DNA of 47,978 bases from contig JAFDLS010000002.1 of the NCBI GenBank assembly GCA_019306365.1, positions 1-47,978 of the forward strand, given 5' to 3'. The position numbers were made by a program, and so were the translations under genes. The stretch is from Deltaproteobacteria bacterium (GTDB taxonomy: Bacteria; Desulfobacterota; Desulfarculia; Adiutricales; JAFDHD01). Positions within the stretch are counted from its first letter, which is position 1. Each line of letters starts with the position of its first letter. Positions 2,099 through 43,348 of this stretch are shown one piece after another. The notes under the pieces are model-generated. The model saw only the letters and a list, made by a program, of their open reading frames with translations, did no database searches and was not told where the DNA came from.

Positions 2099-2407
2099 CT
2101 TGTGATCGTGACAGCCTTAATACACATACGCTCCTGACATAAATGAAACATTCCGGTGATTGACCCGTCAAGTATAAGAAGAAAGGGGCAAGCGTGTCAA
2201 GAGGGAGGTCTGGATATTAAGTGAATAATCACTATCTCGCATCTACTCAAATGATGCAAATTGCAAAAGATTACAAATAACTCATTGATATTCTTACTTA
2301 TCGAGTTCTTATAGGAAAATTAAAAAAATATCTATTAAAATGTGTTTAATTTTGATATATTAATATAAATTATCCAAATTAGTTTGGCGAAAGAAGAACC
2401 CTTCAAA

Positions 2408-2770
2408 ATGAATAAGCGCTATACCCGTAAAGGCTTTACCCTTATCGAATTACTAATTGTCGTTTGCATCATCGGGGTGTTAGCCGCTATAGCGATCCCT
2501 CAGTTTGCCAGGTACCGCACCAATTCAATGAATGCCGCAGTCAAAGCCAGCCTCCATCAATTGGCCAAGGCTCAGGAGGACTATTACCTTCAAAATCAAA
2601 CCTATACCGTCAATCGTGCAACCCTGCGCAACATGGTGGGCTGGACCGTGGAAACTTCGGTAACCATCACAATCCTGGCCGCTTCAACAGAATCATGGTC
2701 TGCCACGGCCAGGCACTTGAGTTCACCGAATACTTTCACTTATACCAGTTCTGGGGGAGGGCTGTTATAA
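2408..2770 (+). CDS. Type IV pilin (prepilin-type N-terminal cleavage/methylation domain)
   Basis: MNKRYTRKG|FTLIELLIVVCIIGVLAAIAIPQF shows the class III signal peptide with Gly-1, Phe+1 and Glu+5. I chose ATG 2408 rather than the ORF-track TTG at 2384. Confidence 0.85.
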   Translation: MNKRYTRKGFTLIELLIVVCIIGVLAAIAIPQFARYRTNSMNAAVKASLHQLAKAQEDYYLQNQTYTVNRATLRNMVGWTVETSVTITILAASTESWSATARHLSSPNTFTYTSSGGGLL

Positions 2771-2859: not shown

Positions 2860-2994
2860 ATCTCAAAATAGTTTGTTTACCCTAACTCATGAGCGCCGCT
2901 TCGCTTACGCTGCAGCGGTCGAAATATTAGATATATTTCTGCGGGTTAAATTTTCTTTCTCCGCGATTTAGACCAAAACACTAATTTTGAGATA
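2860..2994 (+). repeat. Family-2 MITE-like repeat, copy A (diverged or truncated ends, one internal hairpin module)
   Basis: Shares the core GAGCGCCGCTTCGCTTACGCTGCAGCGG ... ATATTTCTGCGGGTTAAATTTTCTTTCTCCGCGATTT with copy C. Ends are ATCTCAAAAT / ATTTTGAGAT. It stops 5 bp from the nuoF-like stop codon. Confidence 0.8.
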
Positions 2995-2998
2995 GCTT

Positions 2999-4786
2999 CT
3001 AATCAATAGCGTCAAATTTACAAGCTGAGAAACAACTCAGGCACTGGATGCATTTTTCTTGATCAATGGAAGCAAGCTGCTTTTTCTCCCAGATGACGGC
3101 ACCCGTGGGACAAACTCTGAAACAGGAACCGCATTTGGTACATTTTTCAGGATCAACCGTAAATTTCAGCAGATTCACGCACCGTTTCGCCGGACACCGC
3201 TTTTCCAGGATGTGCGCTTCGTATTCATCCCGGAAATACCTGAGCGTTGAAAGGATCGGATTGGGGCCTGTTTGACCGAGTCCGCAGAGGGCGGAGGCTT
3301 TGATATCAGCGCTGAGTTCCTCCAGTATTGTAATATCTTCAGGTTCACCATGGCCGTCACAGATTTTATCCAGGATTTGCAGCATACGTTTGGTGCCTTC
3401 GCGGCAGGGAGTGCATTTACCGCAGGATTCATCCTGGACGAAGTCCATGAAAAAGCGAGCCATATCCACCATACAGGTATCTTGATCCATCACGATCATG
3501 CCGCCCGAACCCATAATGGCTCCGGCCTGGACAAGGGATTCGTAATCACAGGGCAGATCAAGCTGCTCCTCGGGTAGGCATCCGCCCGAGGGTCCGCCCA
3601 TCTGGACAGCCTTGAACTTTTTCTTGTTTGGAATTCCGCCGCCGATGTCATAAATAATGGTTCTAAGCGGTGTACCCATGGGGACTTCAACCAGTCCGAT
3701 ATTATTGACGGTTCCGGTCAGAGCAAAGACCTTAGTCCCTTTGCTGGTTTCCGTGCCAATGGAGGAATACCATTCAGCGCCGCGAAAAATGATTTGAGGG
3801 ATATTGGCGTATGTTTCGACGTTGCTGTTAACGGTAGGATACCCGAATATACCGGATTCCCCTGGGAATGGAGGTCTGGGACGCGGCATGCCCCGTTTGC
3901 CCTCTATGGAGGCGATCAGGGCTGTTTCCTCGCCGCACACGAAGGCCCCGGCGCCCTGGTAAACCTCAAGGTCAAAATCAAACCCGGAACCCAAAATGTC
4001 TTTTCCTAAAAGCCCGTATTCCCTGGCCTGTTCAATGGCAATGTTCAGTCTTCGCACGGCCAGGGGATATTCGGCCCGGCAGTAAATGTATCCGTAATGA
4101 GCGTCGTTGGCCTTGGCGGCAATGATTATGCCTTCCAAAACCGCGTGGGGATCAGCTTCCAGTACTGACCGGTCCATGAAGGCGCCAGGATCCCCTTCGT
4201 CCGCGTTACAGAGCATGTATTTAATTTCAGCCTTTGACCTGGCCCCTAACTCAAGTTTTGTGCCGGTTGAGAAACCGGCCCCGCCGCGGCCCCTGAGACC
4301 TGAATCTTTAATCTCTTGAATAATCTCTTCAGGTGTCATTTCCAAGAGCGCCTTGGCAGCCGCCTGGTAACCGTCCCGGGCAATATACTCATCTATCTTT
4401 TCAGCGTCTATCAGACCCTTGTTCCGTAAAACGATAAGAAGCTGATTGGCGAAAAAGGGAATATCCAGCATCTCCGGAATTAGTTCCCTTTTCTCGGGTT
4501 CCTTATAAAAAAGTCTTTCTACGGGCCGGCCTTTTAGAAAATGTTCGCTAACCAACTCAGGCACGTCTTCAACCGTTAATTTCTGATAAAATAACCCTTC
4601 GGGATAAACAACCATAACCGGACCGGCGGCACAGTAACCGTTACAGCCGGTTTCTACGACCTTGACTTCTTCACCTAGTCCCTGTTTTTCCAGCTCAGCC
4701 TCCAGGGCCGTCTTGACCTCCATACTTCCCGATGCATGACACCCGGTGCCTCCGCAAATCAGGGCGTGAGAACGAAATACTTTCAT
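2999..4786 (-). CDS. NuoF-like NAD(P)H-binding FMN/Fe-S flavoprotein (HydB/HndC/FdhB type) with an N-terminal thioredoxin-like 2Fe-2S domain and a C-terminal 2x[4Fe-4S] ferredoxin domain
   Basis: 595 aa. GLRGRGGAGFSTGTK (FMN/NADH site), ESCGKCTPCREG (N3 cluster motif), C-terminal CxxCxxCxxxCP pairs. AAGGAG RBS. Confidence 0.9.
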   Translation of the reverse strand: MKVFRSHALICGGTGCHASGSMEVKTALEAELEKQGLGEEVKVVETGCNGYCAAGPVMVVYPEGLFYQKLTVEDVPELVSEHFLKGRPVERLFYKEPEKRELIPEMLDIPFFANQLLIVLRNKGLIDAEKIDEYIARDGYQAAAKALLEMTPEEIIQEIKDSGLRGRGGAGFSTGTKLELGARSKAEIKYMLCNADEGDPGAFMDRSVLEADPHAVLEGIIIAAKANDAHYGYIYCRAEYPLAVRRLNIAIEQAREYGLLGKDILGSGFDFDLEVYQGAGAFVCGEETALIASIEGKRGMPRPRPPFPGESGIFGYPTVNSNVETYANIPQIIFRGAEWYSSIGTETSKGTKVFALTGTVNNIGLVEVPMGTPLRTIIYDIGGGIPNKKKFKAVQMGGPSGGCLPEEQLDLPCDYESLVQAGAIMGSGGMIVMDQDTCMVDMARFFMDFVQDESCGKCTPCREGTKRMLQILDKICDGHGEPEDITILEELSADIKASALCGLGQTGPNPILSTLRYFRDEYEAHILEKRCPAKRCVNLLKFTVDPEKCTKCGSCFRVCPTGAVIWEKKQLASIDQEKCIQCLSCFSACKFDAID

Positions 4787-4813
4787 CTATTGTCTCCTTA
4801 ATATTCCACCTGG

Positions 4814-5197
4814 TCAGTTAGAGTGCTCACTGCCCTTGGCCATTACAAATTCGTCTTGCACTTCTCCTTCTAGGATATGGCGCTTAAAGATTTGACGCAT
4901 CTTGTTGGGGTCTACAAAGTGGTAACGAATTGCCTCTTCATTCAACAGCTCAACCGTTACAATCGGCTCCTCACTGCAAAGTCCGATGCAGCCCGAGGTG
5001 GTAACAGCGATATCCTGACGATCAGACTGACTGACCTCATCCATGAGCGCGTCCATTACCTGCCGCGCGCCGGAGGCAATGCCGCAGGTACCCATGTGAA
5101 CCGTAACCTTGGCTGTGGCGCCGCCTGTCCTTAGAGATGTATCTTTGAGGACCTGTTCTTTAATTTTTTTTAAATCATCTAATTTCAGTTTGGGCAT
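4814..5197 (-). CDS. Small thioredoxin-like [2Fe-2S] ferredoxin (HndB/HydD-like)
   Basis: Contains GTCGIASGA...SGCIGLCSEEP. Start moved to ATG 5197, which has GAGGAG 8 nt upstream; the ORF-track start at 5206 lies between that RBS and the ATG, too close to the RBS. Confidence 0.8.
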   Translation of the reverse strand: MPKLKLDDLKKIKEQVLKDTSLRTGGATAKVTVHMGTCGIASGARQVMDALMDEVSQSDRQDIAVTTSGCIGLCSEEPIVTVELLNEEAIRYHFVDPNKMRQIFKRHILEGEVQDEFVMAKGSEHSN

Positions 5198-5230
5198 GAT
5201 AAACACTCCTCATAAAATATGAAGCCCAGT

Positions 5231-5776
5231 TTAGATTGAACCTAATTCGGCCAACCCTTCCTGGAGATTTTTCCTTAAAAATTTTATCACTTCAGGGTTG
5301 CTCAGGGACACTCCCTCAAGCTCGTCTTTGATCTCCCTGGTATCAAGAACAAACTCGTTTGAGCCGATTTTCTGCGTGTACATGATATCGACCTCCGGAC
5401 GCCCCACAATCAGACTCATCAATGTGCCTAACATGTCACCCAAAGGGGCGCGATCGATGTGCGATAACCCAAATTCAGCTACAAGCTTGGTCCCGCTGCC
5501 GTGAACGGAATCTATTTTGAAAGATCCGCCTGTTTGCTCGGCGGCCTGACTCAGTAACGACAAGCCCAGGCCGACACGGCGGGTGGTTCTGGTTGTGTAA
5601 AAAGGATCTGTAACCCTGGAGAGCATCTCTTTCGGAATCCCAGATCCGTTATCCGAAATTTTCAATCTTAATATATCCCGGGCCGTGTCTTTTTCCAATT
5701 CAATTTCAATCAAACTCGCGCCAGCGTTAAGGGCGTTCTCTACGACATCGAGAATATGCAATGAAAGTTCCAGCAA
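5231..5776 (-). CDS. Stand-alone GHKL (HATPase_c) ATPase with no HisKA/dimerisation domain
   Basis: N-box LDVVENALNAG, G1 box DNGSGIP and G2-like GLGLSL. TTG start lies 2 nt after the PHP gene stop, suggesting translational coupling. Confidence 0.75.
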   Translation of the reverse strand: MLELSLHILDVVENALNAGASLIEIELEKDTARDILRLKISDNGSGIPKEMLSRVTDPFYTTRTTRRVGLGLSLLSQAAEQTGGSFKIDSVHGSGTKLVAEFGLSHIDRAPLGDMLGTLMSLIVGRPEVDIMYTQKIGSNEFVLDTREIKDELEGVSLSNPEVIKFLRKNLQEGLAELGSI

Positions 5777-5777
5777 G

Positions 5778-6545
5778 TCAACTTCTTCTGCTGAATATTT
5801 TATTTATCGTTCTGCCGTTTTCGTTCTTCAAAGCCATCTTTATTTCAGCCAGGTCAGGTTTGGCCAGGTAAAACTCCGTAAAGGCGGAACCGATGTCATC
5901 CACAAAATGAGCGTCCGAGTTTTTTAAAATCGGCCTGTTAGCCAGTTCCGGGTATTGACTCAGTATCTGTTCTAAATCAGCGAAAGCGGAAATCTCAAAT
6001 CCATCCAGGGCCAGCCCTTCAGGCACGAAACCCAACTGCCCCAGAAGGCTGAATGATTGCCGGTCAACGTGAGAAGCAATAGCCAAACCGCCTCGTTTAT
6101 GAGCTTCCTCAACGACAGTGTTCAGGTCCAGGTCTGTGGCTCCGATTAAAAGGCGTTCATTGAAACCTTCTACTTCGTCATCCTCATTAGCCATAACCTG
6201 CTCACCAAAAACTTCAGGACGATTAGTTCTCGGCGGCAGATGATCATAAACGAGAGCTTGCATGTCCTCGGCTGTCTCAGGTGAATCAAAAAGGGTCAAA
6301 ACATGAACTTCCTCAGCAGAACTAACCTCCAGGCCAGCTAAAACTTTTAATCTTCCGATGCGTTCCGCAGCCCGGAAGGCAGCTGCAACATTTTCCGCAG
6401 TGTTGTGATCGCAAATGGCTATGATATCCAGGTTTTTCGCAAGAGCCGCTTCTACGATGCCTCGAGGCGACATGTCCAGCTCTCCGCATGGCGAGAGACA
6501 TGTGTGTATGTGAAGATCAGCCCGAAAAGCGGACAGCACGGCCAT
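5778..6545 (-). CDS. PHP-domain metal-dependent phosphoesterase
   Basis: ADLHIHTCLSPCG ... ICDHN ... SDAH, the His/Asp motifs of the polymerase/histidinol-phosphatase fold. Confidence 0.8.
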   Translation of the reverse strand: MAVLSAFRADLHIHTCLSPCGELDMSPRGIVEAALAKNLDIIAICDHNTAENVAAAFRAAERIGRLKVLAGLEVSSAEEVHVLTLFDSPETAEDMQALVYDHLPPRTNRPEVFGEQVMANEDDEVEGFNERLLIGATDLDLNTVVEEAHKRGGLAIASHVDRQSFSLLGQLGFVPEGLALDGFEISAFADLEQILSQYPELANRPILKNSDAHFVDDIGSAFTEFYLAKPDLAEIKMALKNENGRTINKIFSRRS

Positions 6546-6548
6546 CGT

Positions 6549-6884
6549 TTATTCATTTAAAAGATTGAACAACAAACCGCTAATTTCAAAAGCAGGCCGG
6601 TCACTTTGGAGTATGGGAACATTCTCCTGTTTAGCCTTGGTTAGGGTGGCCTCATCCGGTGTCCGGTCTTTGATCAGAATTATTCCGGTAAGTTCGCGGA
6701 GCACCCCCACGGCCACTATATTTATATGGGCCTGAAGTGTGATCCAAACCTGGCCGGTATCGGCGTTAGCCATAACATCACTTAGAAGATCCCCAGTATA
6801 ACCGCCTGTTACCTCGCGCTCCAGCAACTCACTTCCTGACAGAACTTTGAGTTCGAGTCTTTGCACCACATCGGCCAGTGTCAT
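6549..6884 (-). CDS. DRTGG-domain protein (second copy)
   Basis: About 111 aa, paralogous in layout to 7352-7726. Start moved to ATG 6884, which has GGAGG 6 nt upstream. Confidence 0.65.
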   Translation of the reverse strand: MTLADVVQRLELKVLSGSELLEREVTGGYTGDLLSDVMANADTGQVWITLQAHINIVAVGVLRELTGIILIKDRTPDEATLTKAKQENVPILQSDRPAFEISGLLFNLLNE

Positions 6885-6911
6885 ATTTCGACCTCCAAAT
6901 CCTTCATCCAA

Positions 6912-7352
6912 TCACGCTTCTTCGGTTGTCCATCCAGAGCGGAAGATGATTTTGAGGCGCGTTCCTTCGCCCACAGCCGATGAGATGGTAAATTCATCCG
7001 CATTTTTCATGATATTGGGCAGACCCATCCCCGCGCCAAACCCCATCTCTCGTATCTCTTCTGTGGCCGTGGAAAAACCTTCCATCATGGCCTGTTCGAT
7101 GTCAGGGATACCGTCGCCTTTATCTTCCACGTATATATAGATACCCTCGTCATCGACCTCGAGTGACATGACCCCATCCCGGCCATATACGACCGCGTTT
7201 ATTTCGGCCTCATAACAGGCAATGGTCGCTCGACGTACCAAGTCGTTTTCGGCCTTCATTTCCCGCAAAATTTTTTTTACTTGAAGCGAAGCTTCTCCAG
7301 CGCGAACGAAATCCATCTCCTTGATGGGAAATTCGTGCCGTGGGTAGTGCAT
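6912..7352 (-). CDS. RsbW/SpoIIAB-like small GHKL ATPase (anti-sigma-type Ser/Thr kinase fold)
   Basis: 146 aa with EAEINAVVYG (N-box-like), DKGDGIPD (G1) and GFGAGMGLP (G2). Its ATG overlaps the upstream DRTGG stop (TAATG). Confidence 0.7.
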   Translation of the reverse strand: MHYPRHEFPIKEMDFVRAGEASLQVKKILREMKAENDLVRRATIACYEAEINAVVYGRDGVMSLEVDDEGIYIYVEDKGDGIPDIEQAMMEGFSTATEEIREMGFGAGMGLPNIMKNADEFTISSAVGEGTRLKIIFRSGWTTEEA

Positions 7353-7726
7353 TATTCAGTCGAGCCTGGCAAACCGTTTAAGTAAAGGTGGCCGGCAGCC
7401 TCATACATTGAATAGGAAGTTAGAAATAGAGGTAAACCAACTTCCTTCGCTTTGGCGATGACTTCCTTGGAAGGAGATCGCCCCCGAACAAAAACAACTC
7501 CTATTAGACCGGATATATCGGCCGTGTTAACAACCTGAATGTTAGTTAAACCGGTCAGAAGAAGGTTGCCTGATTTGATAAAAGCCAGCACTTGACTCAT
7601 GAGGTCCGTACACTCAACATGCTGTACCGTCTGGTCGAGAGGTTCTTCACCAGTAAGAACTTCCGCGTTTAGAATCTTTACGACATGACGCAGGCTTGTG
7701 CCGCTTTCCGAATTAGATTTGATCAT
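7352..7726 (-). CDS. DRTGG-domain protein (first copy)
   Basis: 124 aa. LLLTGLTN ... VVFVRGRSPSKEVIAKAKEVGLPLF matches the DRTGG-domain pattern recalled from Pta N-terminal and CBS-associated proteins. Confidence 0.65.
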   Translation of the reverse strand: MIKSNSESGTSLRHVVKILNAEVLTGEEPLDQTVQHVECTDLMSQVLAFIKSGNLLLTGLTNIQVVNTADISGLIGVVFVRGRSPSKEVIAKAKEVGLPLFLTSYSMYEAAGHLYLNGLPGSTE

Positions 7727-7756
7727 ACTGGTTCGCGTTACTTTCCATATTAAGGT

Positions 7757-8254
7757 TTATTCATATCCGTTCATAACATCAATGATCTTATTGGAAGTCA
7801 TTCCGCGATGGGTGTCATCATCAATAACAGTCATTGGGGCTAGGCCGCAAGCGCCCAGACACCGAACAGCCTCTATAGTAAACCTCCTGTCCTCTGTTGT
7901 TTTGCCCACTTCGACATTGTATTCGTGTTGGATTCGATTCAGCGTCTCATTGGCCCCTTTAACAAAACACGCTGTTCCCATACAAACACGGACCGTATGC
8001 CGTCCACGGGGCACCATGGTAAAAAATGAATAAAAGGTGACCACCCCGAAGACAGCGCTGCCCGGAATGCCAATCCCCGTGGCAATGTACTCCTGAATGA
8101 AAACAGGCAAATAACCGCAAACTTCCTGGGTCTCTTGAAGGACGGGAATAAGGGAACCCTGAGTACCCCTTCGGCGGGCGATAATTTCGTCGACCTTGAT
8201 CAACATTTCGTCAGTAATGTCGTCTGGTCTTCTTATAATAGTAGTATGGTTCAT
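7757..8254 (-). CDS. NuoE-like [2Fe-2S] subunit (HydC/HndA type)
   Basis: Contains GSLIPVLQETQ ... VCMGTACFVKG ... AVRCLGACGLAP. Start moved to ATG 8254, which has AAGGAG 8 nt upstream. Confidence 0.9.
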   Translation of the reverse strand: MNHTTIIRRPDDITDEMLIKVDEIIARRRGTQGSLIPVLQETQEVCGYLPVFIQEYIATGIGIPGSAVFGVVTFYSFFTMVPRGRHTVRVCMGTACFVKGANETLNRIQHEYNVEVGKTTEDRRFTIEAVRCLGACGLAPMTVIDDDTHRGMTSNKIIDVMNGYE

Positions 8255-8561
8255 CCGCACGACTCCTTGGTATAACAATCAGTTGTATATGCTGATAGCA
8301 TAAAACCCTGCAGGGGGCAAGGCTTTTTCCTTTAAGTCGCAGCGAATTAAATTTTTTGCAAAAGGTATGTTTTTGTTCGATTTTATTCAAGATACCTTCT
8401 CTATGGTCAGCCCTTGAGAGATAAAATGAATTACGAGGTATTGGGTCTGAAATCAGGTTTGTCTAACAGTGGCTTAAGGGCTTAAATGATAAGCCTTTAC
8501 TTAAAAAAAGAAAGAGACCGGAGAACATCGTCGATCCAGGATGAAAACGTCTTGGTCTAAA

Positions 8562-8592
8562 GTTTTGGATGGCATTTAAGGCCATCCAAAAC
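8562..8592. other. Perfect 12-bp hairpin immediately flanking Family-2 copy B
   Basis: GTTTTGGATGGC-ATTTAAG-GCCATCCAAAAC. It could serve as a weak terminator for the upstream minus-strand methyltransferase operon. Confidence 0.5.
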
Positions 8593-8595
8593 CTT

Positions 8596-8800
8596 GAGAC
8601 CTCTGCAAAACCAGTAATTTTGTTGAAATCGCGGAAGGCGAAAAATTAACCCGCAGGAATATTACCTAGTATTTCGAGGACTTAATTTTGAGCCTGACAT
8701 ATGCCGCTCCAGCGTCAGAGAAGCGGTGCTCAAAACCGCTGCAGCATGAGCGAAGCGGTGTTCATGAGTTCGGCTAAAGGTTGAAGTTTTGCAAGGTCTC
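8596..8800 (-). repeat. Family-2 MITE-like repeat, copy B (longest form, two internal hairpin modules)
   Basis: Ends are GAGACCTCTGCAAAAC ... GTTTTGCAAGGTCTC. The core is the reverse complement of copy E, plus two tandem CCGCT...AGCGG modules. Confidence 0.9.
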
Positions 8801-8875
8801 ACTTTATTAATAGCGTCTAAATCCTTCTTCAATTTTATCTTCGATTTTGGCCAGGCTGTAGTTTTTACAAAAGAT

Positions 8876-9577
8876 TCAATAAGGCTTTTGTGTATAAACG
8901 ACCATGCTTTTAGGGAAAAGGTGGTTGCAGGATTTTTCCCAGCGCTTGAGCCGGTTATCCAGGACGACCCTGTGTAGAAAACGGTGGTATAATTTAGGCA
9001 CCTTAGCCTCCTCGTTGTCTAAACCTGAAAGACACCTGAGAACCCAATAAAGACTGTGGAAGGCATGAGCAAAACTGATGGCGTAAATCTTAAGCCCGCC
9101 GGAAGTAAGCACATGAAAAAGCTGTTTGGGACGATATATCCTTATATGTCCGCCTGGCGTGCGAAAATATTTCCAGGACAGCCGTTTGTATACATGTTCC
9201 GTAAAAGGCGTGGGTACGGTCACGGCTAATACTCCTCCGGGCTTGAGCACCCGGTAAAACTCAGCTACGACCCCCCGGTCGTCCGGGATATGCTCCATCA
9301 CCTCGGCACAGATGATCCTGTCAAAAGTGGCATCCTGAAAAGGCAGTCTAAGGGTGTCGCCCCGGATGAACAGGGCCGGCCCATTAGTGTCACCCTGCTT
9401 GACCATTTCTCGAAATACATACTGGGCTTTACCAACGCTTTGATAATCAAAATCCAGGCCAAAGACCTTGCAGCCGGCCCGGTTTAACGCAAAGGTATGA
9501 CGGCCTTCACCACAGCCGGCGTCCAGAATAAAATCTCCCGGCTGAGGGTTGAATTTTTTAAAATCAACGGTAAGCAC
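8876..9577 (-). CDS. Class I SAM-dependent methyltransferase
   Basis: ILDAGCGEGRHT (motif I) and VLKPGGVL (post-I/II). Overlaps the upstream GT gene by 14 nt. Confidence 0.8.
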   Translation of the reverse strand: MLTVDFKKFNPQPGDFILDAGCGEGRHTFALNRAGCKVFGLDFDYQSVGKAQYVFREMVKQGDTNGPALFIRGDTLRLPFQDATFDRIICAEVMEHIPDDRGVVAEFYRVLKPGGVLAVTVPTPFTEHVYKRLSWKYFRTPGGHIRIYRPKQLFHVLTSGGLKIYAISFAHAFHSLYWVLRCLSGLDNEEAKVPKLYHRFLHRVVLDNRLKRWEKSCNHLFPKSMVVYTQKPY

Positions 9578-10826
9578 TCATAACCTCACGGTACGCCTGC
9601 ACCAGTTGCCTGGCTGCCATATCCCAGCTGAAGACGTCAATTATGCGCTGGCGGGCGGCGTGTCCCATCTCCAGGCATTTTGCCGGGTCTTTGAGGAGAC
9701 CATTGATGGCTTCGGCCAGGCGATCCGGGTTTCGGGGCGGGACCAGACAGCCGGTTTCTTCCGTGGAACCGATTACCTCTGGCAGAGCGCCGGCCGTCGT
9801 GGCCACGACAGGCAGTTCGCAAGCCATGGCTTCAGCGGCCGGGAAACCGAATCCCTCATAAAGAGAAGGCACCACGGCCAGCTGAGCGGACGAATACCAT
9901 TTGACCAGTTCCCCCTGGTCGACCTGTCCGGTAATGTGCACTCGATCCTCCAGCCCATAATGCTGGATTATATCTTGACTTGAAATTCGCGGAGGAGTTC
10001 CGCCATTTACTATGATCAGGTGGATGTTCGGGTCCATAAGAGGCATGGCCTGGAGAACATATTCAATACCCTTTTTGGGATCCGCCACGTTACCCACGAA
10101 TATGATCCGTTTGGGTACTTTTTCCACTTCAGGGACAGGTCGAAAAATTGAAGCGTCCAAACCGTTGTAAACAACTCGAATCTTTTTCGCGTCCACCCCA
10201 AAGGCTTTCTGAATTTGGACGGCTGAGTCCTCAGAAACCGTTATGATTCCATCTAAACGGTTAGCCACAAGCCTCTGCATAACCAGCGGGTAGTACAGCA
10301 GTCTTTTGATCTTTGATTTAAGCGAGTGCGGCTGTTCAAACCAGACTTGTCTGTCAATGGAAAGGGGATGATGAATGGTGGATACCAGAGGAATGCCAAA
10401 ATGCTTCATTAAAAGGAAACCATAGCCCAGGCATTGGTTGTCGTGAATAATATCGTACCTTTCATGCTTTAATATTTCCCGGAGACGGAAGTATGCTCTG
10501 AAGCTAAAGGCTTTTATCTCAGGGAAAACACCCATTCTGGAAGCTGTATACTCGTAAAAATGAAGAGGGTTTAGAAATTCTTTGGCTGAGGTCCTCGCCA
10601 GGATCTCCGCGGAGGAGGAGCCAAAGTAAATGTTGTTTTGGATATGGTCAACACTTGCTCCATTCATGAATATGGGGTAAGGAGGCCCCACAAGGGCATG
10701 AACTTCGTGCCCCAGTTTTCTTAGTTCTTGGGCCAGATATTGAAGGTAAATCCCTTGCCCTCCGCAGTAAGGGTTACCACGATAGCTCAATAGGCAGATT
10801 TTCAGTTTGTCTTTGTGGTAATGCAT
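9564..10826 (-). CDS. Glycosyltransferase, GT4 / group 1 (GT-B fold)
   Basis: C-terminal EGFGFPAAEAMACELPVVAT (E-x7-E region). N-terminus KICLLSYRGNPYCGGQGIYL is paralogous to the neighbouring GT. Confidence 0.8.
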   Translation of the reverse strand: MHYHKDKLKICLLSYRGNPYCGGQGIYLQYLAQELRKLGHEVHALVGPPYPIFMNGASVDHIQNNIYFGSSSAEILARTSAKEFLNPLHFYEYTASRMGVFPEIKAFSFRAYFRLREILKHERYDIIHDNQCLGYGFLLMKHFGIPLVSTIHHPLSIDRQVWFEQPHSLKSKIKRLLYYPLVMQRLVANRLDGIITVSEDSAVQIQKAFGVDAKKIRVVYNGLDASIFRPVPEVEKVPKRIIFVGNVADPKKGIEYVLQAMPLMDPNIHLIIVNGGTPPRISSQDIIQHYGLEDRVHITGQVDQGELVKWYSSAQLAVVPSLYEGFGFPAAEAMACELPVVATTAGALPEVIGSTEETGCLVPPRNPDRLAEAINGLLKDPAKCLEMGHAARQRIIDVFSWDMAARQLVQAYREVMSAYR

Positions 10827-12103
10827 TGCGATTTTCCTTTCGGAAAAGGTGCCGCTTGTCGAGACGTATGCTGATTAATCAATTGCTGGTAAATTTGAAC
10901 TGTATTTTCAGCTGTCCGGTCCCAACTGAACAGGCGCTCAACGCGTCTACGCGCTCGCAGACCAAGTTCCCTTGAAAAATTAGGTTGAGAAATGAGTTTA
11001 TTAATCGCTTCACTTAGAGCATGTGGATTCTTCGGAGGCACCAAAAGTCCCCCTTCCTGGTCATCTCCAACCACCTCCGGCAGGGAACCGGATCTGGTAG
11101 TGACGACCGGTGTCCCGCAGGCCATTGCCTCGGCCACCGGAAGACCAAAACCCTCAAATAATGAAGGCATCACCAACACCTGAGTCCGTCGATATCTTTC
11201 GACCAGTTCAGCTTCGGTTAATCTCCCGGTGAAAGTGACCCGGTCTTCGAGACCCATGGACCTGACAAGGCCTGGCGCATAATGCTTATCCGGCTCTCCT
11301 TGATCGACTACCGTAAGGATTACTCCCGAAGGCAGATCTGACATAGCCTCCAGAAGATAACGTATTCCTTTTCTCGGGTCCTCGGCATTGCCTACGAAAA
11401 GAATTTCTTTAGGGTCTCTTTCAAGTGAAGGGTCCGGTGAAAATGTGGCTGCGTTCACTCCCGTGTAAACCAGATGAATTTTATTCGTTTTTACTCGAAA
11501 GGCCTCGTTTAATTCTTTCAGGCCGACTTGGGAGGAAGTGATCATCCCGTCGATCCTGCGGGCCACAAGACCCTGCATTAATAGAGGATAAAAGACCGTG
11601 TTGTGATATCGTTCCCGCCAGGAGGTGGCGCGCGGTAAAAACGCCGCCAGGTCACGACGCAGCGTGTGATGAACCGTCGATACTGTGGGCGTTCCCAGGG
11701 TCCGGGCCAGAAGGAGACCAAACCCCAGAGTCTCAACATCGTGAAGCACATCAAAAGGCCGGTCCTGGTGAAGTTCTTTAAATTTTAAAGCCGCTCTTAT
11801 ACTAAAGGCCAGAGGTTCAGGGCAGTAACCCGTCCTGCTGGCCACATATTCAAAAAAATTGAGCGGAGTAAAAAGGCTTTTCAGATCGTGTAAAAGAAGA
11901 AGATCCTTTACCTTAACGCCCCATAAATGCTTGTTAGGGAGCCTGATTTCCCGAACCTGAGGCATGGGATTAGGGTAGGGGGGACCAACGAGCGCGGTGA
12001 CATCGTGTCCCTGTTTCACTAAAGCCTGGCTCAAATTAGCAAGATATATCCCTTGCCCGCCGCAAAAAGGATTTCCGCGATAACATTGTAAGCAAATTCT
12101 CAT
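10802..12103 (-). CDS. Glycosyltransferase, GT4 / group 1 (paralogue of 9564-10826)
   Basis: MRICLQCYRGNPFCGGQGIYL ... EGFGLPVAEAMACGTPVVTT. Confidence 0.8.
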   Translation of the reverse strand: MRICLQCYRGNPFCGGQGIYLANLSQALVKQGHDVTALVGPPYPNPMPQVREIRLPNKHLWGVKVKDLLLLHDLKSLFTPLNFFEYVASRTGYCPEPLAFSIRAALKFKELHQDRPFDVLHDVETLGFGLLLARTLGTPTVSTVHHTLRRDLAAFLPRATSWRERYHNTVFYPLLMQGLVARRIDGMITSSQVGLKELNEAFRVKTNKIHLVYTGVNAATFSPDPSLERDPKEILFVGNAEDPRKGIRYLLEAMSDLPSGVILTVVDQGEPDKHYAPGLVRSMGLEDRVTFTGRLTEAELVERYRRTQVLVMPSLFEGFGLPVAEAMACGTPVVTTRSGSLPEVVGDDQEGGLLVPPKNPHALSEAINKLISQPNFSRELGLRARRRVERLFSWDRTAENTVQIYQQLINQHTSRQAAPFPKGKSQCITTKTN

Positions 12104-12116
12104 GCCCTGAGCCGGT

Positions 12117-13181
12117 TCAATCTTTTTGAAGGTTTACCTGAGGCTCGACCTGAATTGTTAATAATGTCCAGCCAATCCAGAATCCAAGCCCTAAGAGCCA
12201 AAAAAATCCGATGGCCACAGGAATGGCGAGGGCCCACCAATTTTTAGCAAAAATACCAACCAGGAACAAAAGGGCGGCTAAAAAAGTGACCAAACAAAGG
12301 ACCAACCCTTGAATACGGGAATACTTGTTCATTATCTTAACTCCAATCTTCTTTTCATTTCTTTCTACTTCCGATTTCTTTTCAAAGGATTTATTGCCTT
12401 CATCAGGGACTCGTTCAATGCGAAACACCAGCACATCGGCCAAGCTGGGGCAGGTTCGGGCTATCGAGTTCAGGGTATTCAAGATTCCTTTAGACGCCCT
12501 TGCAGGCAGGATTTTCAAGAACTTTCCCCACTTCGGGAAACCCCAAAACATGGAAACCCCAAATTCCTGATCAATGCGAGATTCCTCGGGGATCAATTTC
12601 AGTAGAAATGGGTAGTTGAACTCATAAACATGGTCATCGGGTTTGTCCCAGATGTGAGGCGCTGATAGCTCCCGGCCCTTGATAGCTTTATGAATTCGAT
12701 TGTAAAGTTTAGCCGACCTAAAACCAAGGTTGCTGAAGTTGGCCACCGAGATAATCAAACGGCCGCCAGGCTTGAGTACCCTGACCATCTCTTGTATGGC
12801 CTTGCCCGGATCATAAAAATGATCGATAGCCCCTTTACAAATGACCTTATTGAAACTCTTGTCCGCGTAAGGGAGATTTTCAGCGCTGCCGCATGCCAGC
12901 CGGGGAGGAATGCTCTGGGCTATAAAATTTTCCGCAGCCCGTTCTATCATCACACGCGAGCCGTCGAAACCAAAGAGGATTGCGCCCTTTGCGCCCAAAG
13001 AGAGCAGGTCCAGGGCGCGGCCGCATCCCACGTCCAGAATTAGTTCGTCCGGGCTGGCATCCACCGCTTCCAGCGTTTGGCCAGTCATCTGGTCGATCAG
13101 GTATGCCGTGTCCGGATTGATAGTGTCCGGGATCACACCTTCATCATCCCATTTTTTATCTATCAGTTCCTGATTCGTCAC
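12117..13181 (-). CDS. SAM-dependent methyltransferase fused to a C-terminal two-helix membrane anchor
   Basis: ILDVGCGRALD and VLKPGGRL motifs. A Lys/Glu-rich linker is followed by about 70 hydrophobic residues (LVLCLVTFLAALLFLVGIF ... AIPVAIGFFWLLGLGFWIGW). An in-frame ATG at 12332 has its own GGAG. Confidence 0.7.
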   Translation of the reverse strand: MTNQELIDKKWDDEGVIPDTINPDTAYLIDQMTGQTLEAVDASPDELILDVGCGRALDLLSLGAKGAILFGFDGSRVMIERAAENFIAQSIPPRLACGSAENLPYADKSFNKVICKGAIDHFYDPGKAIQEMVRVLKPGGRLIISVANFSNLGFRSAKLYNRIHKAIKGRELSAPHIWDKPDDHVYEFNYPFLLKLIPEESRIDQEFGVSMFWGFPKWGKFLKILPARASKGILNTLNSIARTCPSLADVLVFRIERVPDEGNKSFEKKSEVERNEKKIGVKIMNKYSRIQGLVLCLVTFLAALLFLVGIFAKNWWALAIPVAIGFFWLLGLGFWIGWTLLTIQVEPQVNLQKD

Positions 13182-15521: not shown

Positions 15522-18500
15522 TCAGGCGATCAAAGCCCGTGTTTTTGCTAGTAACTGCTCATCCGTGAAATGCTGGAGGCTGATTGCCTTACCAGGACAT
15601 TCTGAGACACAAGCGCCGCAGCCCTGACAGATGGCAGGCTCAATAACAGCATGACCTTCTTCGCCAATACGGGGCACACCAAAAGGACAGGTTCGTACAC
15701 AGGTTAAACAAACAGCGCATTTGTCCGGATCGACCACCGCCACAATACCGCCAACACTTATGGATTCCTTGGCTAGAATAGTTACAGTCCTGGCGGCTGC
15801 GGCTCTGGCCTGAGCAATGGATTCTTCTATGGGTTTGGGATAATGAGCCAGACCGGCCAGGAACATGCCTTCATTCGCAAAATCAACCGGTCTGAGTTTC
15901 ATGTGGGCTTCCAGGAAGAAACCTTCGGCATTCAGCGAAACCTTATAAGCCTCTGAGATCACTTCCCCTTCATTAGGCAGGATAGCTGCGGCCAGGCACA
16001 CGATATCACAATTGATTTCGAGAGGCAGACCTAAAATAGGATCAGTCACCGTCAGTTTTAGCTCTTCCGGACTGGCCGCCTCGACCTTGGGTTTGTCGTC
16101 AACGTCATACCTGATGAAGAGAACCCCAAGCTCCCGGGCCTTTTTATAGAGCGATTCCCTGAACCCATAGGTTCTGACGTCACGGTAAATTATGTACACT
16201 GTGGTTTCAGGATTCGCCTCTTTGATCTTAATAGCGCTCTCCACCGAATGGGTGCAGCAGATCTTGGAACAGTATGGACGGTCCGGTTCCCTGGATCCGA
16301 CACACTGGATAAAGGCCACGCTTTTGGCCTGCTCAAGTGTCTTGGATTTCTCAACCATAAGCGCGTCAAGTTCCAGCGATGTTAATACCCGGTCATGCTG
16401 GCCATAAAGGTATTCGTCGGGTTTTAGAGCTTTGCCGCCAGAAGCCACAACAACGGCCCCATGGGGGGTGCTAATTGTCCCCTCGGGGGTTTTAATCTCA
16501 GAGACAAAATTACCCAGGAATCCGTCGCATTTAGTTATTTCGGAATTATAATGGATGGTAACCAGCTTGGAGGCCTCAACCTTTTTAATCAGATCCTGCG
16601 TAAATGATTTAATATCCTCTCCACGCCAGGTCTTATTGAGATTGAGCGCGTTCCCGCCCAGATGATCGCTTTTTTCTACGAGATGGATTGGAAAGCCTTG
16701 TTCGGCAATGGAAAGAGCGGCGGTCATCCCGGCCACGCCCCCGCCAATGACGATGGCTTCCTTGGTCAGACCCATCTGAGTTTGGTGCAGGGGTTCGAGC
16801 AAAGCCACCTTGGCCACCGCGCCCCGGACCAGATCCTTGGCTTTGTCGGTCGCTTTTTCAGGTTGATCGCGGTGCACCCAGGAGTTGTGATCCCTGATGT
16901 TGGCCATTTCAAAGAGGTATTTGTTCAAACCGGCTTTGGCCAGAGTTTCCCTGAACATGGGCTCATGAGTCCTGGGTGAGCAGGAAGCCACAACGACACG
17001 GTTCAGATTATGTTCGGTGATGGCTTCTTGAATCTTACCCTGGGTGTCCTGGGAGCAGGTAAAGAGGTTGTGATCAGCGAGTTCGACAAACGGGAGCGTA
17101 CTCGCGTATTCCGCTACGGCCGGTACGTCAACAACCCCACCGATATTGATGCCGCAATGGCAGATGAAAACACCGATACGAGGTGCCTGATCGGCTACTT
17201 CCTGCTCAGGCGGATACTCGATGGTTTTGGTTTGAGTGAAACGAACCTCACTCAATTCGGATGAGGCTGCGCTGGCCGCGGCTGAGGCCTCCATAACCGA
17301 GATAGGAATGTCTTTGGGCTCATTAATAGCGCCGCAGACATATATTCCCGGTTGAGAAGTCTTAACCGGCTCAAACGTGGATGTAGAGACAAAACCGTCT
17401 TCCGTTAAATCCACCCCAAGGCGTTCGGCCAATTCTGTGAATTCGGCTGAAGGCTCTAAACCAACTGAAAGAGTAACCATGTCGTACTCTTCCACCTTGA
17501 CTTGACCGGTTTCGTCGGCGTAACGAATTATCAAGTTTTCGTCAGATGTCCGGTCAATGGTGTGGATTCGGCAGCGGACAAATTTGATGCCGAGTTCCTT
17601 GGCCCTCTCATAGTATTTTTCAAAATCCTTCCCATAGGTTCTCATGTCCATGAAAAAGATAGTGGTATCCAGTTCCTCGGCCGAATGCTCCTTGGCAATG
17701 ATCGCTTCCTTGATGGCATACATACAGCAGACAGCAGAGCAGTAGGGCCGGTCACAATTGTTTATATCCCTCGAACCTACGCATTGAAGCCATGCGATTT
17801 TTTTCGGCTCCTTGTGATCAGAGGGCCTGATCAAATGTCCCTGATAAGGTCCTGAGGCGGATAATACCCTTTCAAATTCCATGGCTGAAAGGACGTTCGG
17901 GCTTTCCGAATATTGATAGTTTTGAAAACGGGTTGGGTCAAAGGCGTCAAATCCGGCGGCGAGAACCACAGAACCGACCTCGAGGTCAACGATTTCGTCC
18001 TGCATCTTATGTGTTTCAAGCGTTACTGCTCCAGCTTCGCAGGCCGCCACACATCTGTGACATTCACAGCAAAGGCCACAGGCCAGGCACTTTGAAGCTT
18101 CAAGCTCACCCAACTCGGGATCAAAGCCAAGTTCGATCTCATCAAAGGTCGTCTTGCGCTGTTCGAGCGGAATCTTTGGCATTTCAAGGCGAGCTCTTTT
18201 CTTTTCATTAGCGGGCATGTCTCGCCAGTTTTTATTATCAAGGCTTCGATCGATAGGCTCGCGACCGGCAGTTAAATCCTCTCCTTTTAGATAACGGTCA
18301 ATAGATATGGCCGCCTCTTTTCCTCCGGCAACGGCTTCAATAGCGGAACGAGGACCGGTTTGCATATCGCCAGCGGCAAAAACACCGTCTCGGCCGGTGG
18401 CCAGACTTATGGAGTCAACCTCTATGTTGCCTCCCCGCGTGAATGTCAATCCATCGACATTGCTCAACGGATCTATAAGCGGCGCCTGACCGATAGCTAC

Positions 18501-22236: not shown

Positions 22237-22409
22237 GAGACCTCTTCAAATCATCGTCCTTTAGCTGACTTCTTGAGCGCCGCCTCGCTGACATTGCAGC
22301 GGCATATGTCAGTCTCAAATTTAAGTTCTCGAAATATTTAACATATTTCTGCGGGTTAAATTTTCTTTCTCCGCGATTTTAACATAATTACTGGTTTTGC
22401 AGAGGCCTC
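22237..22409 (+). repeat. Family-2 MITE-like repeat, copy C (one internal hairpin module)
   Basis: GAGACCTCTTCAAATC ... GGTTTTGCAGAGGCCTC. The core ATATTTCTGCGGGTTAAATTTTCTTTCTCCGCGATTT is identical to copy A. Confidence 0.9.
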
Positions 22410-22565
22410 ATGTTAGAAATAAATTCCACGGCAGCCAGAAGCCGCCTTGCCCCGTTTAATGGATTTAGGGGGATGTCTTTTGATTTTTCGGGATTCAAGG
22501 GAAAGAAAAGCGTAATTTTTAAAGGTTGTGATATTAACAGCTCTTTTAAATAGTCAAACGTCAAA

Positions 22566-43149: not shown

Positions 43150-43290
43150 GAGACCTCTGCAAAACTTCGTCCTTTAGCCGAACTCATTGTCAGTCTCAAA
43201 TTTAAGTCCTCGAAATATTGGAAATATTCCTGCGGGTTAAATTTTCGCCTTCCGCGATTTCAACAAAATTACTGGTTTTGCAGAGGTCTC
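43150..43290 (+). repeat. Family-2 MITE-like repeat, copy E (minimal 141-bp form, no internal hairpin module)
   Basis: Perfect 16-bp terminal inverted repeats GAGACCTCTGCAAAAC / GTTTTGCAGAGGTCTC. It starts 3 nt after the lipid-kinase stop codon. Confidence 0.9.
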
Positions 43291-43348
43291 TAACCGGCTT
43301 TTTCCCCGGGGAAGGGCAAGGGTATTCAGTATTATCATCGGTCTGGTT

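Follow-up and report, generated by a model that had tools for sequence, protein, structure and literature searches.

A putative regulatory cassette of DRTGG, ATPase, phosphoesterase and ferredoxin genes accompanies the BfuBC core of bifurcating enzymes and persists without sensor or catalytic partner in a desulfobacterotal operon

We have examined an eight-gene operon within a 47,978-nucleotide stretch of contig JAFDLS010000002.1 (assembly GCA_019306365.1) from a Deltaproteobacteria bacterium of the Desulfobacterota, the whole stretch being referred to here as the window. By homology and domain content the two outer genes are shown to encode the BfuBC (HydBC) core, which couples NAD(H) and ferredoxin in Bfu-type bifurcating enzymes. 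The six genes enclosed between them, coding for two DRTGG-domain proteins, an RsbW/SpoIIAB-like ATPase, a PHP-family phosphoesterase, a 181-aa GHKL ATPase and a small ferredoxin, form a cassette which is conserved across phyla and which, among the loci mapped, is found only in Bfu operons. The cassette consists of two halves, DRTGG1 with the RsbW-like protein and DRTGG2 with the PHP protein, the GHL-type ATPase and the HydD-type ferredoxin, with a sensor slot between them. The form present in the window, which has neither sensor nor catalytic partner, is shown by comparison with a diverged relative to be conserved and, judging from substitution rates, under purifying selection. We consider the chances about even that the cassette switches the bifurcating core on and off post-translationally in an ATP-dependent manner, in which case the window operon would represent a putative natural minimal version of a widespread regulatory system.

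An initial annotation, made by a model from the letters and their open reading frames (ORFs), had named the outer genes NuoE- and NuoF-like, an identification upheld by Pfam, NCBIfam and a colinear match to 7t2r_B. The NuoE-like protein scores 155 bits with Pfam 2Fe-2S_thioredx and has HoxE/NuoE as its best NCBIfam match; its ORF is preceded by an AAGGAG ribosome-binding site 8 nt 5' of the ATG, and an independent gene call also yields 165 aa. The NuoF-like protein contains Complex1_51K (149 bits), SLBB, NADH_4Fe-4S (121 bits), 2Fe-2S_thioredx and two Fer4 domains, and so has both the 51K domain that binds FMN and NADH and an N3-type [4Fe-4S] domain. Its residues 1-594 align gaplessly with the bifurcating HydB of Acetomicrobium mobile NiFe-HydABCSL (7t2r_B, E 6.5e-262), the next-best matches being HydB of Acetobacterium woodii, Thermoanaerobacter kivui and Thermotoga maritima. 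Every cluster-binding cysteine is in place, the 2Fe-2S_thioredx domain at residues 7-80 containing C11, C16, C48 and C52 and the C-terminus comprising the two Fer4 domains at residues 542-594 and a CPAKRC motif. The window protein thus has both extra cluster domains, N-terminal [2Fe-2S] and C-terminal 2x[4Fe-4S], that non-bifurcating homologues miss, and a NuoE-type BfuC is encoded in the same operon. In the Bfu nomenclature, BfuB and BfuC constitute the invariant NAD(H)/ferredoxin core (Schut et al. 2022, PMC9304861); the BfuB domain set and NuoE-type BfuC described for the family are the same as in the window and, all features recognisable at this level being present, the core is assigned to the Bfu family.

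Two elements of this arrangement are already on record, namely modules consisting of BfuBC only and operons in which a lone GHKL ATPase and a small ferredoxin alone lie between the core genes (PMC9304861); recurrence of the latter pair, noted in the initial annotation, is thereby confirmed. The 'Type 4' Bfu group (clade 57, 47 members) has BfuBC only, with a third substrate that is mostly unclear (PMC9304861). BfuA is the defining subunit of Types 1-3, and its lack in the window is consistent only with Type 4 or with a partner encoded in trans. Like Type 4, the window has BfuBC without BfuA nearby, but the described example has a rubrerythrin downstream and the window has none. As in the A. 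mobile operon, 'hisK' and 'hydD' are located between the core genes, whereas the two DRTGG genes and the RsbW-like and PHP genes are not discussed in that paper.

Conservation of the cassette was surveyed by scanning one genome per species with an alignment of the PHP protein and mapping the best 80 of at least 595 loci with the eight window proteins and with reference domains drawn from the loci themselves. Genes in these loci, designated by L numbers, were called as the longest ORF, which produces some mislabels in GC-rich loci, and key labels were checked by Pfam or precomputed annotation. The PHP protein has 5,449 homologues at E <= 1e-5, the best 120 being 53-78 % identical, and relatives are present in at least 595 species-representative stretches (595 of 600 candidates). 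Cassette loci span Desulfobacterota, Acidobacteriota, Ignavibacteriota, Bacteroidota, Cloacimonadota and Fidelibacterota and occur further in Spirochaetota, Clostridia, Bipolaricaulota, Nitrospirota, Zixibacteria and others. The recurrent gene order is DRTGG1, RsbW-like, slot, DRTGG2, PHP, GHKL, (NuoE), ferredoxin, NuoF, and the order within the window cassette is the same as in L001, L007, L008, L012 and L085, among others. Throughout the mapped loci the RsbW-like gene adjoins DRTGG1 and the PHP gene adjoins DRTGG2.

At the 80 loci Bfu genes are found wherever the contig extends far enough, in agreement with precomputed Pfam annotation. The partner varies, being [FeFe] HydA in Syntrophales (whose NuoF also bears a fused GltD/NfnB-like domain), a NiFe-HydABCSL set (BfuA, MvhD, small and large subunits), a selenocysteine-split FdhA, a GltD/Nfn-type BfuA or HdrA-type proteins with MvhD; an FdhA~NuoE fusion is also seen. 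The common denominator of the cassette loci is therefore the BfuBC core and not one catalytic subunit. The term 'orphan', applied to the operon in the initial annotation, does not describe the nature of the system, as related cassette operons do encode a catalytic partner and often a HydS sensor too. In the FdhA genes located by the cassette, an in-frame stop separates a part of ~135-390 aa from one of ~539 aa (L009 5363-8149; L002, L003, L026, L042, L062, L078, L084), a pattern consistent with selenocysteine-containing formate dehydrogenases. In NiFe-type loci a conserved trio, encoding a Fer4 protein, a CCG (HdrB-like) protein and a ~285-aa HdrA-like flavoprotein, is located about 1 kb before DRTGG1 (L008, L017, L027, L041, L050, L058, L061, L068, L070, L076, L079, L085) and has no counterpart in the window.

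Occupancy of the slot between the kinase and DRTGG2 genes differs between loci. HydS is present in 39 of the 80 loci as a gene of ~430 aa with 2x[4Fe-4S], Fe_hyd_lg_C and a C-terminal PF04060 FeS domain, the make-up of group D (M2e). A CBS pair is N-terminal on the RsbW-like kinase in 10 loci, all without HydS, and the slot is empty in 31, a number which includes loci on truncated contigs. The slot is likewise empty in the window, HydS being absent and tblastn giving short ferredoxin-motif matches only. Fusions are observed between HydS and DRTGG2 (L011, L030, L084) and between DRTGG and the RsbW-like protein (L057). At L064, DRTGG2, PHP, GHKL and ferredoxin occur without DRTGG1 or the kinase; as the second half can thus stand alone and the published operons carry GHKL and ferredoxin alone, the cassette is nested and modular. 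Gene duplications are also evident, with two tandem HydS genes at L043 (2420-5115) and two tandem DRTGG1 genes before the kinase in Smithella-type Syntrophales (L013, L033, L034, L056, L059, L060; ~8130-9160).

Genes corresponding to the cassette have been encountered in the vicinity of HydS. TamHydS is a characterised group D putative sensory hydrogenase whose signal transduction was left open (Land et al. 2020, PMC8163306). The window has the same accessory genes in the same order as this group D (M2e) neighbourhood, and Halanaerobium hydrogeniformans Halsa_1862-1871 (PMC4237134) shows the same genes and order, located upstream of or within a bifurcating NuoEF-type module. The accessory genes in the published neighbourhoods are an anti-sigma-type Ser/Thr kinase, PHP, a 'histidine kinase' and a small ferredoxin. 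Unlike these neighbourhoods, the window is without HydS, which defines them, and without HydA. Published accounts of the HydS neighbourhood are descriptive and assign no mechanism. In the open-access literature, whose coverage excludes some key papers, cassette genes are mentioned descriptively and nothing was found on the DRTGG and PHP genes or on a modular sensor slot.

The sensor-less, partner-less form found in the window is maintained. The initial annotation had allowed that the locus might be merely a truncated assembly or a rearrangement. Truncation during assembly can be dismissed, since two independently assembled NCBI metagenome-assembled genomes (MAGs) contain this operon together with its neighbours, and a diverged relative, the 99.5-kb metagenome contig L083, carries the same operon. 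L083 proteins are 75-92 % identical in amino acid sequence to those of the window, and gene order is identical from the HdrA fusion, MvhD, MetV, MetF, a methyltransferase, two glycosyltransferases and a methyltransferase through NuoE to NuoF and the convergent pilin. The ratio of nonsynonymous to synonymous substitution (dN/dS, Nei-Gojobori) between the window and L083 is 0.04-0.10 for all eight genes (NuoE-like 0.09, ferredoxin 0.04), values which are rough, dS being 1.0-2.1 and near saturation, but far below 1. Among mapped loci with several kb of flank, only L001 and L030 resemble the window in lacking a BfuA-type gene. At L030, from Desulfarculus and without partner, a formate/nitrite transporter gene (Form_Nir_trans, 254 bits; 11434-12387) is located between the GHKL ATPase and ferredoxin genes.

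As initially proposed, no catalytic subunit is co-transcribed with the window operon, tblastn and Pfam detecting none across the 48-kb window. Neither HydA, FdhA, a [NiFe] large or small subunit nor the BfuA N-terminal domain is found in the window or in the extended contig. The queries matched only HdrA-related and MvhD sequences at 15.1-18.1 kb and short ferredoxin motifs at 15.6 and 3.0 kb, and a catalytic partner within the window was rejected. We infer that the missing third-substrate module is encoded elsewhere, and the clues to its identity conflict, BfuB phylogeny pointing to a (Sec-)formate dehydrogenase and conserved synteny to HdrA-fusion/MvhD/MetVF. In a neighbour-joining tree of BfuB, which has no support values and does not include L084, the window and L083 form the sister group of L001, L002 and L003, followed by L030. 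L002 and L003 have a GltD-type protein and Sec-FdhA inside the operon, an arrangement shared by L084 (61 % PHP identity). This phylogeny favours a formate dehydrogenase encoded elsewhere, a partner that would fit the adjacent formate-tetrahydrofolate ligase.

The HdrA fusion (15522-19961, minus strand, 1,479 aa) is located 7 kb upstream of the operon on the same strand, followed by MvhD, MetV and MetF. It is composed of an HdrA N-terminal fragment, a GltD-like Fer4_20/Pyr_redox_2 region and a double HdrA-like region. Residues 633-1472 are 48-52 % identical to cassette-adjoining HdrA proteins in L032 and L035; in L032 (Cloacimonadota) a BfuA-N-terminal~HdrA protein, 48 % identical to the window HdrA fusion, directly follows the cassette. 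HdrA/MvhD-type operons with the cassette are also found at L020, L055 and L071. A link to the HdrA/MvhD/MetVF genes, suggested in the initial annotation, is plausible in view of the L083 synteny and of HdrA homologues (48 % identity) in other cassette operons. However, BfuB of the Hdr-type cassette operons is distant from window BfuB, and the window HdrA fusion is without a BfuA N-terminal domain. Precedents in which a BfuBC-type module is associated with HdrA-like and MvhD-like subunits are Bam-Bfu (class II benzoyl-CoA reductase BamB-I) and MetFV-HdrABC-MvhD, but the window is without the BamI/BfuA-type connector and BamB-type catalytic subunit of Bam-Bfu.

Folds and conserved residues of the inner proteins constrain what the cassette may do. 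DRTGG2 scores only 19 bits with Pfam DRTGG, yet hhalign clearly identifies it as a DRTGG1 paralogue (99.8 %, E 2e-28), and an invariant D-L-[ML]-S-D motif is located at the strand-to-helix junction in both. Invariant residues of DRTGG1 are D41, S44, T58, G59 and P85, and DRTGG2 has its own W-x-T-x-Q-x-H-x-N motif. The AlphaFold2 (AF2) model of DRTGG1 (pLDDT 88) has as its top Foldseek match the AF1212 DRTGG protein 2ioj (TMq 0.78), with further matches to the DRTGG domain of CBS-pyrophosphatases (TMq 0.71-0.72) and the N-terminal domains of HPrK/P and MurE; no STAS structure is among the top 50. As Foldseek returns DRTGG, HPrK-N and MurE-N folds only, DRTGG as a hidden STAS or receiver fold was ruled out, and the earlier suggestion that these proteins replace STAS antagonists is not supported by the fold. 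A structural parallel is seen in the regulatory CBS-DRTGG-CBS insert of family II pyrophosphatases (3l2b/3l31), whose DRTGG fold is matched at the TMq given above. CBS and DRTGG co-occur in 10 of the related loci but on separate proteins, and the window DRTGG proteins are stand-alone without CBS, the enzyme that would be regulated here being a redox complex.

The catalytic residues of all three cassette enzymes, the RsbW-like protein, the PHP protein and the 181-aa ATPase, are intact. The RsbW-like protein matches TIGR01925 spoIIAB (E 1.9e-13) and, in the Protein Data Bank (PDB), SpoIIAB 1tid (E 5e-8), and its N-box E48/N52, G1 D77xGxG and G2 G104-G110 are conserved in 71 orthologues. Across 71-76 orthologues, both ATPases retain their N, G1 and G2 ATP-binding boxes; the initial annotation had noted that loss of such residues would count against its proposal. 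In the PHP protein, H12, H14, D46, H47, E73, H81, H159, D211, H213, C16 and C20 are at least 90 % conserved (81 sequences). Its nearest NCBIfam families are the TrlF N-terminal domain, RNase RNM and nucleoside-bisphosphate (pAp) phosphatase and its best PDB matches 3e0f, 9etk and 7ug9 (RNase AM), placing it closest to TrpH/YciV, RNase AM and nucleoside-bisphosphate phosphatases. Neither CpsB nor YwqE is among the best NCBIfam or PDB matches, and an assignment to the CpsB/YwqE protein-phosphatase type, entertained initially, gives way to kinship with nucleotide and RNA phosphoesterases. Residues 12-20 form an invariant H-x-H-[TS]-C-L-S-P-C-G, with two cysteines right after the first metal-binding motif. 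TrpH-type PHP enzymes have S-D-G where the cassette protein has these cysteines, which could provide a different metal ligand or a redox-sensitive CxxxC.

The 181-aa ATPase, known as 'HisK' in Bfu operons, is modelled (AF2, pLDDT 85, pTM 0.83) as a Bergerat fold with a small alpha/beta second domain. Foldseek matches to MutL, PMS2 and TopoVI-B (TMq 0.52-0.60, root-mean-square deviation 4-8 A) extend over 175-210 columns of their N-terminal regions, whereas those to histidine-kinase CA domains extend over no more than about 100; MutL/TopoVI-B-type proteins have a much larger second domain. In this model, the protein looks like a GHL ATPase of the MutL/TopoVIB-like type. The N, G1, F and G2 boxes are conserved, as is an F102/H106/D108/P111/G113 motif corresponding to F-x3-H-x-D-x2-P-x-G at residues 102-113 (F-G-L-S-H-I-D-R-A-P-L-G in the window). 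Pfam HisKA is not detected, and residues 115-176 are modelled as alpha/beta and not as a DHp hairpin. A permuted H-box at S-H106-I-D-R-x-P-L (compare SHELRTPL) was rejected, the segment being an inter-domain linker in a protein with no DHp hairpin and GHL-like Foldseek matches. The model is that of a putative two-domain GHL ATPase and not of a kinase with a phospho-acceptor domain.

The HydD-type ferredoxin scores 22 bits with Pfam 2Fe-2S_thioredx, under the Pfam cut-off, with its best PDB matches in the 2Fe-2S domain at the N-terminus of BfuB-type subunits and a further one in Aquifex Fd4 1f37. H37, C41, C73 and C77 are conserved in 71 sequences (H37 at least 90 %). H37 occupies the place of the first cysteine in the BfuB N-terminal domain, and only three cysteines remain. 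By these comparisons the ferredoxin is a paralogue of the BfuB N-terminal domain, and its conserved residues suggest that a [2Fe-2S] cluster is held by 3Cys+1His, in the manner of labile or sensor-type clusters.

How these components might act on the core can be outlined. We know of no account of how the activity of Bfu-type enzymes is controlled. In the proposed switch, which would be neither a transcriptional circuit nor part of the catalytic holoenzyme, one half would be an RsbW-like kinase modulated by DRTGG1, with CBS as a further modulator in loci that have it, and the other a PHP phosphoesterase modulated by DRTGG2, with HydS, where it occurs, in the corresponding role. Each half would counteract the other at a target among the GHL ATPase, HydD and BfuBC, setting its phosphorylation or nucleotide state and thereby gating assembly or electron flow. 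HydS is assigned as input to the phosphoesterase half because of the HydS~DRTGG2 fusions. For the DRTGG proteins, a regulatory role as adaptors or ligand-binding subunits of the two enzymes is, by analogy, more likely than one as STAS-like substrates; it is suggested by their fold, the place of DRTGG beside CBS in pyrophosphatases and homology to the HPr kinase N-terminal domain. A post-translational mode of action is favoured because the parts are of signalling type, no DNA-binding or sigma component is present, the cassette lies between structural genes and two of its members do not co-purify. Sigma factor, STAS, PP2C and helix-turn-helix (HTH) genes are all missing from the operon and from the annotated neighbourhoods, and no sigma factor gene is present in the flanks of L081, L083, L084 and L085. 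HisK and HydD are absent from the purified bifurcating holoenzyme (PMC9304861).

Several observations weigh against such a switch. The nearest relatives of the PHP protein act on nucleotides or RNA and not on phosphoproteins, and the GHL-type fold predicted for the 181-aa ATPase fits a chaperone or clamp as well. STAS partners and sigma factors, the usual targets of RsbW-family proteins, are absent here. Furthermore, the empty sensor slot leaves the window circuit without an evident input, and the clues to the catalytic partner diverge and come in part from a tree without support values.

The initial annotation had read the cassette as a non-canonical partner-switching circuit. In its literal form, in which the RsbW-like kinase phosphorylates the conserved DRTGG serine, the PHP protein dephosphorylates it and either unphosphorylated DRTGG or the kinase sequesters a Bfu component, this is unlikely. 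A likeness to RsbW/RsbV/RsbU and SpoIIAB/SpoIIAA/SpoIIE does exist, in that a small HATPase_c_2 kinase-type ATPase, a small alpha/beta neighbour and a phosphoesterase share an operon. Intact N, G1 and G2 boxes in a SpoIIAB-type kinase, an invariant Ser44 in the D-L-[ML]-S-D motif at the strand-to-helix junction of both paralogues, the fusion at L057 and the constant adjacency of the kinase gene to DRTGG1 and the PHP gene to DRTGG2 all speak for this scheme, and the invariant serine and the fusion keep a substrate role for DRTGG alive. The intact ATP-binding boxes and the DRTGG~kinase fusion lend the earlier proposal partial support, whereas a STAS-like DRTGG and a CpsB-type PHP are not supported. 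DRTGG has a fold other than STAS, the PHP protein is near nucleotide phosphoesterases with no CpsB/YwqE match, and no output protein is encoded in the operon or the annotated flanks, although one may be encoded in trans. In addition, DRTGG serves as a regulatory/dimerisation module in CBS-pyrophosphatases (3l2b), and the CBS~RsbW fusions fit an adaptor role. The window operon has DRTGG and PHP where RsbW/SpoIIAB modules have STAS (searched by Pfam and Foldseek) and PP2C, encodes no sigma factor and is on this comparison not a member of the RsbW/RsbV/RsbU family, although it may work in a related way.

Alternatively, the cassette could serve assembly or maturation of the core, the GHL ATPase acting as a clamp or chaperone, HydD as a cluster donor or scaffold, the PHP protein as a nucleotide or flavin-cofactor phosphoesterase and the DRTGG proteins as nucleotide-binding helpers. 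The two-domain GHL fold resembles MutL and TopoVI-B, HydD is paralogous to the BfuB N-terminal cluster domain and its 3Cys+His ligands are typical of labile clusters, and nucleotide-related relatives are known for PHP as well as for the DRTGG fold. The placement of the genes between two core genes and the absence of HisK and HydD from the purified holoenzyme also agree with such a function. However, the SpoIIAB-type kinase, the sensory hydrogenase and the CBS pairs belong to signalling and not to assembly. Moreover, T. maritima FeFe-HydABC is not known to need hisK or hydD for its assembly. For that enzyme, drawn alongside the A. mobile operon in Figure 1 of PMC9304861, the legend names neither gene. 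We regard an assembly function as distinctly improbable.

Transcriptional control, with the RsbW-like protein as an anti-sigma factor for a sigma factor encoded elsewhere and DRTGG as the anti-anti-sigma factor, appears very improbable. The family resemblance to SpoIIAB/RsbW speaks for it, as does the NiFe-type locus L085, where a canonical STAS/HATPase_c_2/GAF-SpoIIE set (1-2216) is located about 5-7 kb upstream of the cassette and may be a coincidence or a link to classical partner switching. Against it, no sigma factor gene is present in the window operon or in four annotated neighbourhoods, the embedding of the cassette among structural genes implies co-expression, and fusions tie the cassette to HydS, CBS and DRTGG and not to DNA-binding parts. 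Finally, the idea that the operon is a decaying remnant or assembly artefact after loss of FdhA, GltD-type and HydS genes, suggested by the presence of those genes in the same operon of relatives L002, L003 and L084 and by dispersed repeats on both sides of the window operon, is essentially excluded, as far as sequence can tell, by eight intact ORFs with catalytic motifs kept, by the low dN/dS against L083, by the identical arrangement in two MAGs and a diverged relative and by L001, which is also without BfuA.

An extended form of the post-translational switch can be envisaged, spanning phyla and gating Bfu bifurcation through interchangeable inputs (HydS for H2, CBS for adenylates, or none), with DRTGG proteins as new kinase and phosphatase partners and the sensor-less form of the window controlling a BfuA-less core docked on HdrA-fusion/MvhD/MetVF. 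As a whole we hold this extended scheme to be quite unlikely. If it were true, the methylene-tetrahydrofolate reductase used by sulfate reducers in the reverse Wood-Ljungdahl pathway would be NADH/ferredoxin-coupled and regulated.

Bfu-type enzymes, which include bifurcating hydrogenases, formate dehydrogenases and Nfn-like transhydrogenases, set the NADH/ferredoxin/H2/formate balance in fermenters, syntrophs, acetogens and sulfate reducers. The analysis shows that the genes around HydS are a fixed cassette which follows the BfuBC core and not the catalytic subunit, that the sensor position is modular (HydS, CBS or empty) and that a version lacking both sensor and partner is kept under selection. 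These findings provide a parts list and natural 'deletion variants' for experiments, and flag a BfuBC core beside Wood-Ljungdahl genes.

Features of the operon and its surroundings are listed in Table 1.

Table 1. Location of the operon genes and flanking elements in the window.
Feature	Position	Strand	Description
NuoE-like BfuC/HydC [2Fe-2S] subunit	7757-8254	minus	165 aa, ATG at 8254
DRTGG1, stand-alone DRTGG-domain protein	7352-7726	minus	124 aa; Pfam DRTGG 36 bits, PucR 37 bits
RsbW/SpoIIAB-like GHKL Ser/Thr-kinase-type ATPase	6912-7352	minus	146 aa; HATPase_c_2 30.6 bits
DRTGG2, stand-alone DRTGG protein	6549-6884	minus	111 aa from ATG 6884; longest ORF begins 6911
PHP-family metallophosphoesterase	5778-6545	minus	255 aa; Pfam PHP and PHP_C
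Putative two-domain GHL-type ATPase ('HisK' of Bfu operons)	5231-5776	minus	181 aa; HATPase_c 66 bits, HATPase_c_3
HydD-type thioredoxin-like ferredoxin	4814-5197	minus	127 aa; 5' end 5197/5206
NuoF-like BfuB/HydB FMN/NAD(H) subunit	2999-4786	minus	595 aa
Bidirectional intrinsic terminator, common to operon and convergent pilin gene	2808-2852	both	inverted repeat and RNA fold
Convergent pilin gene	2384-2770		downstream of NuoF-like stop
Dispersed intergenic repeat, copy abutting NuoF-like stop	2880-2998	plus	
Dispersed intergenic repeat, inverted copy upstream of NuoE-like gene	8600-8790	minus	

The eight closely spaced, intact ORFs on the minus strand between 2999 and 8254 form one tight operon; all had been predicted with their domains, on which Pfam and NCBIfam agree. 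The DRTGG1 stop overlaps the start of the RsbW-like gene in a TAATG at 7352, exactly as predicted. The close junction between the PHP and 181-aa ATPase genes is likewise present, but the gap is 1 nt and not 2 nt, the TGA at 5780-5778 being followed by one base and then the TTG start at 5776. The RsbW-like stop at 6912 and the DRTGG2 start at 6884 are separated by 27 nt.

A repeat element, a strong bidirectional terminator and a convergent pilin gene had been predicted after the NuoF-like stop, and all are found. The terminator stem is a 10-bp G+C hairpin, GGGGGAACU/AGUUCCCCC, with A- and U-runs on either side; its RNA fold has a dG of -21.7 kcal/mol (z -3.0), and a U-run follows the stem on both strands. 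An Rfam scan of the window, repeats included, gave no riboswitch or sRNA match. The intergenic repeat occurs in four copies in the window, compared with 0 expected by chance, at 2880-2998 (+), 8600-8790 (-), ~22290-22420 (+) and ~43150-43300 (+). The family unit is about 150-190 nt, with a core of CTGCGGGTTAAnTTTTCnnnnTCCGCGATTT and a CCGCT..AGCGG hairpin module. Two copies bracket the operon in inverted orientation, the upstream one not being present in the orthologous L083 spacer. The element could be MITE- or REP-like (a miniature inverted-repeat transposable element or a repetitive extragenic palindrome) and perhaps a mediator of rearrangements.

Direct repeats between the CoA-binding gene and the pilin gene (1736-2018) include a 127-nt spaced pair (91 % identity) and a 38-nt unit that occurs three times; perfect inverted repeats of 14 nt are present as well. 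On the minus strand, an S-adenosylmethionine (SAM)-methyltransferase gene, two GT4 glycosyltransferase genes and a second methyltransferase gene (8876-13181) are located between MetF and the NuoE-like gene, an odd insertion between two energy-metabolism gene sets which is kept in L083.

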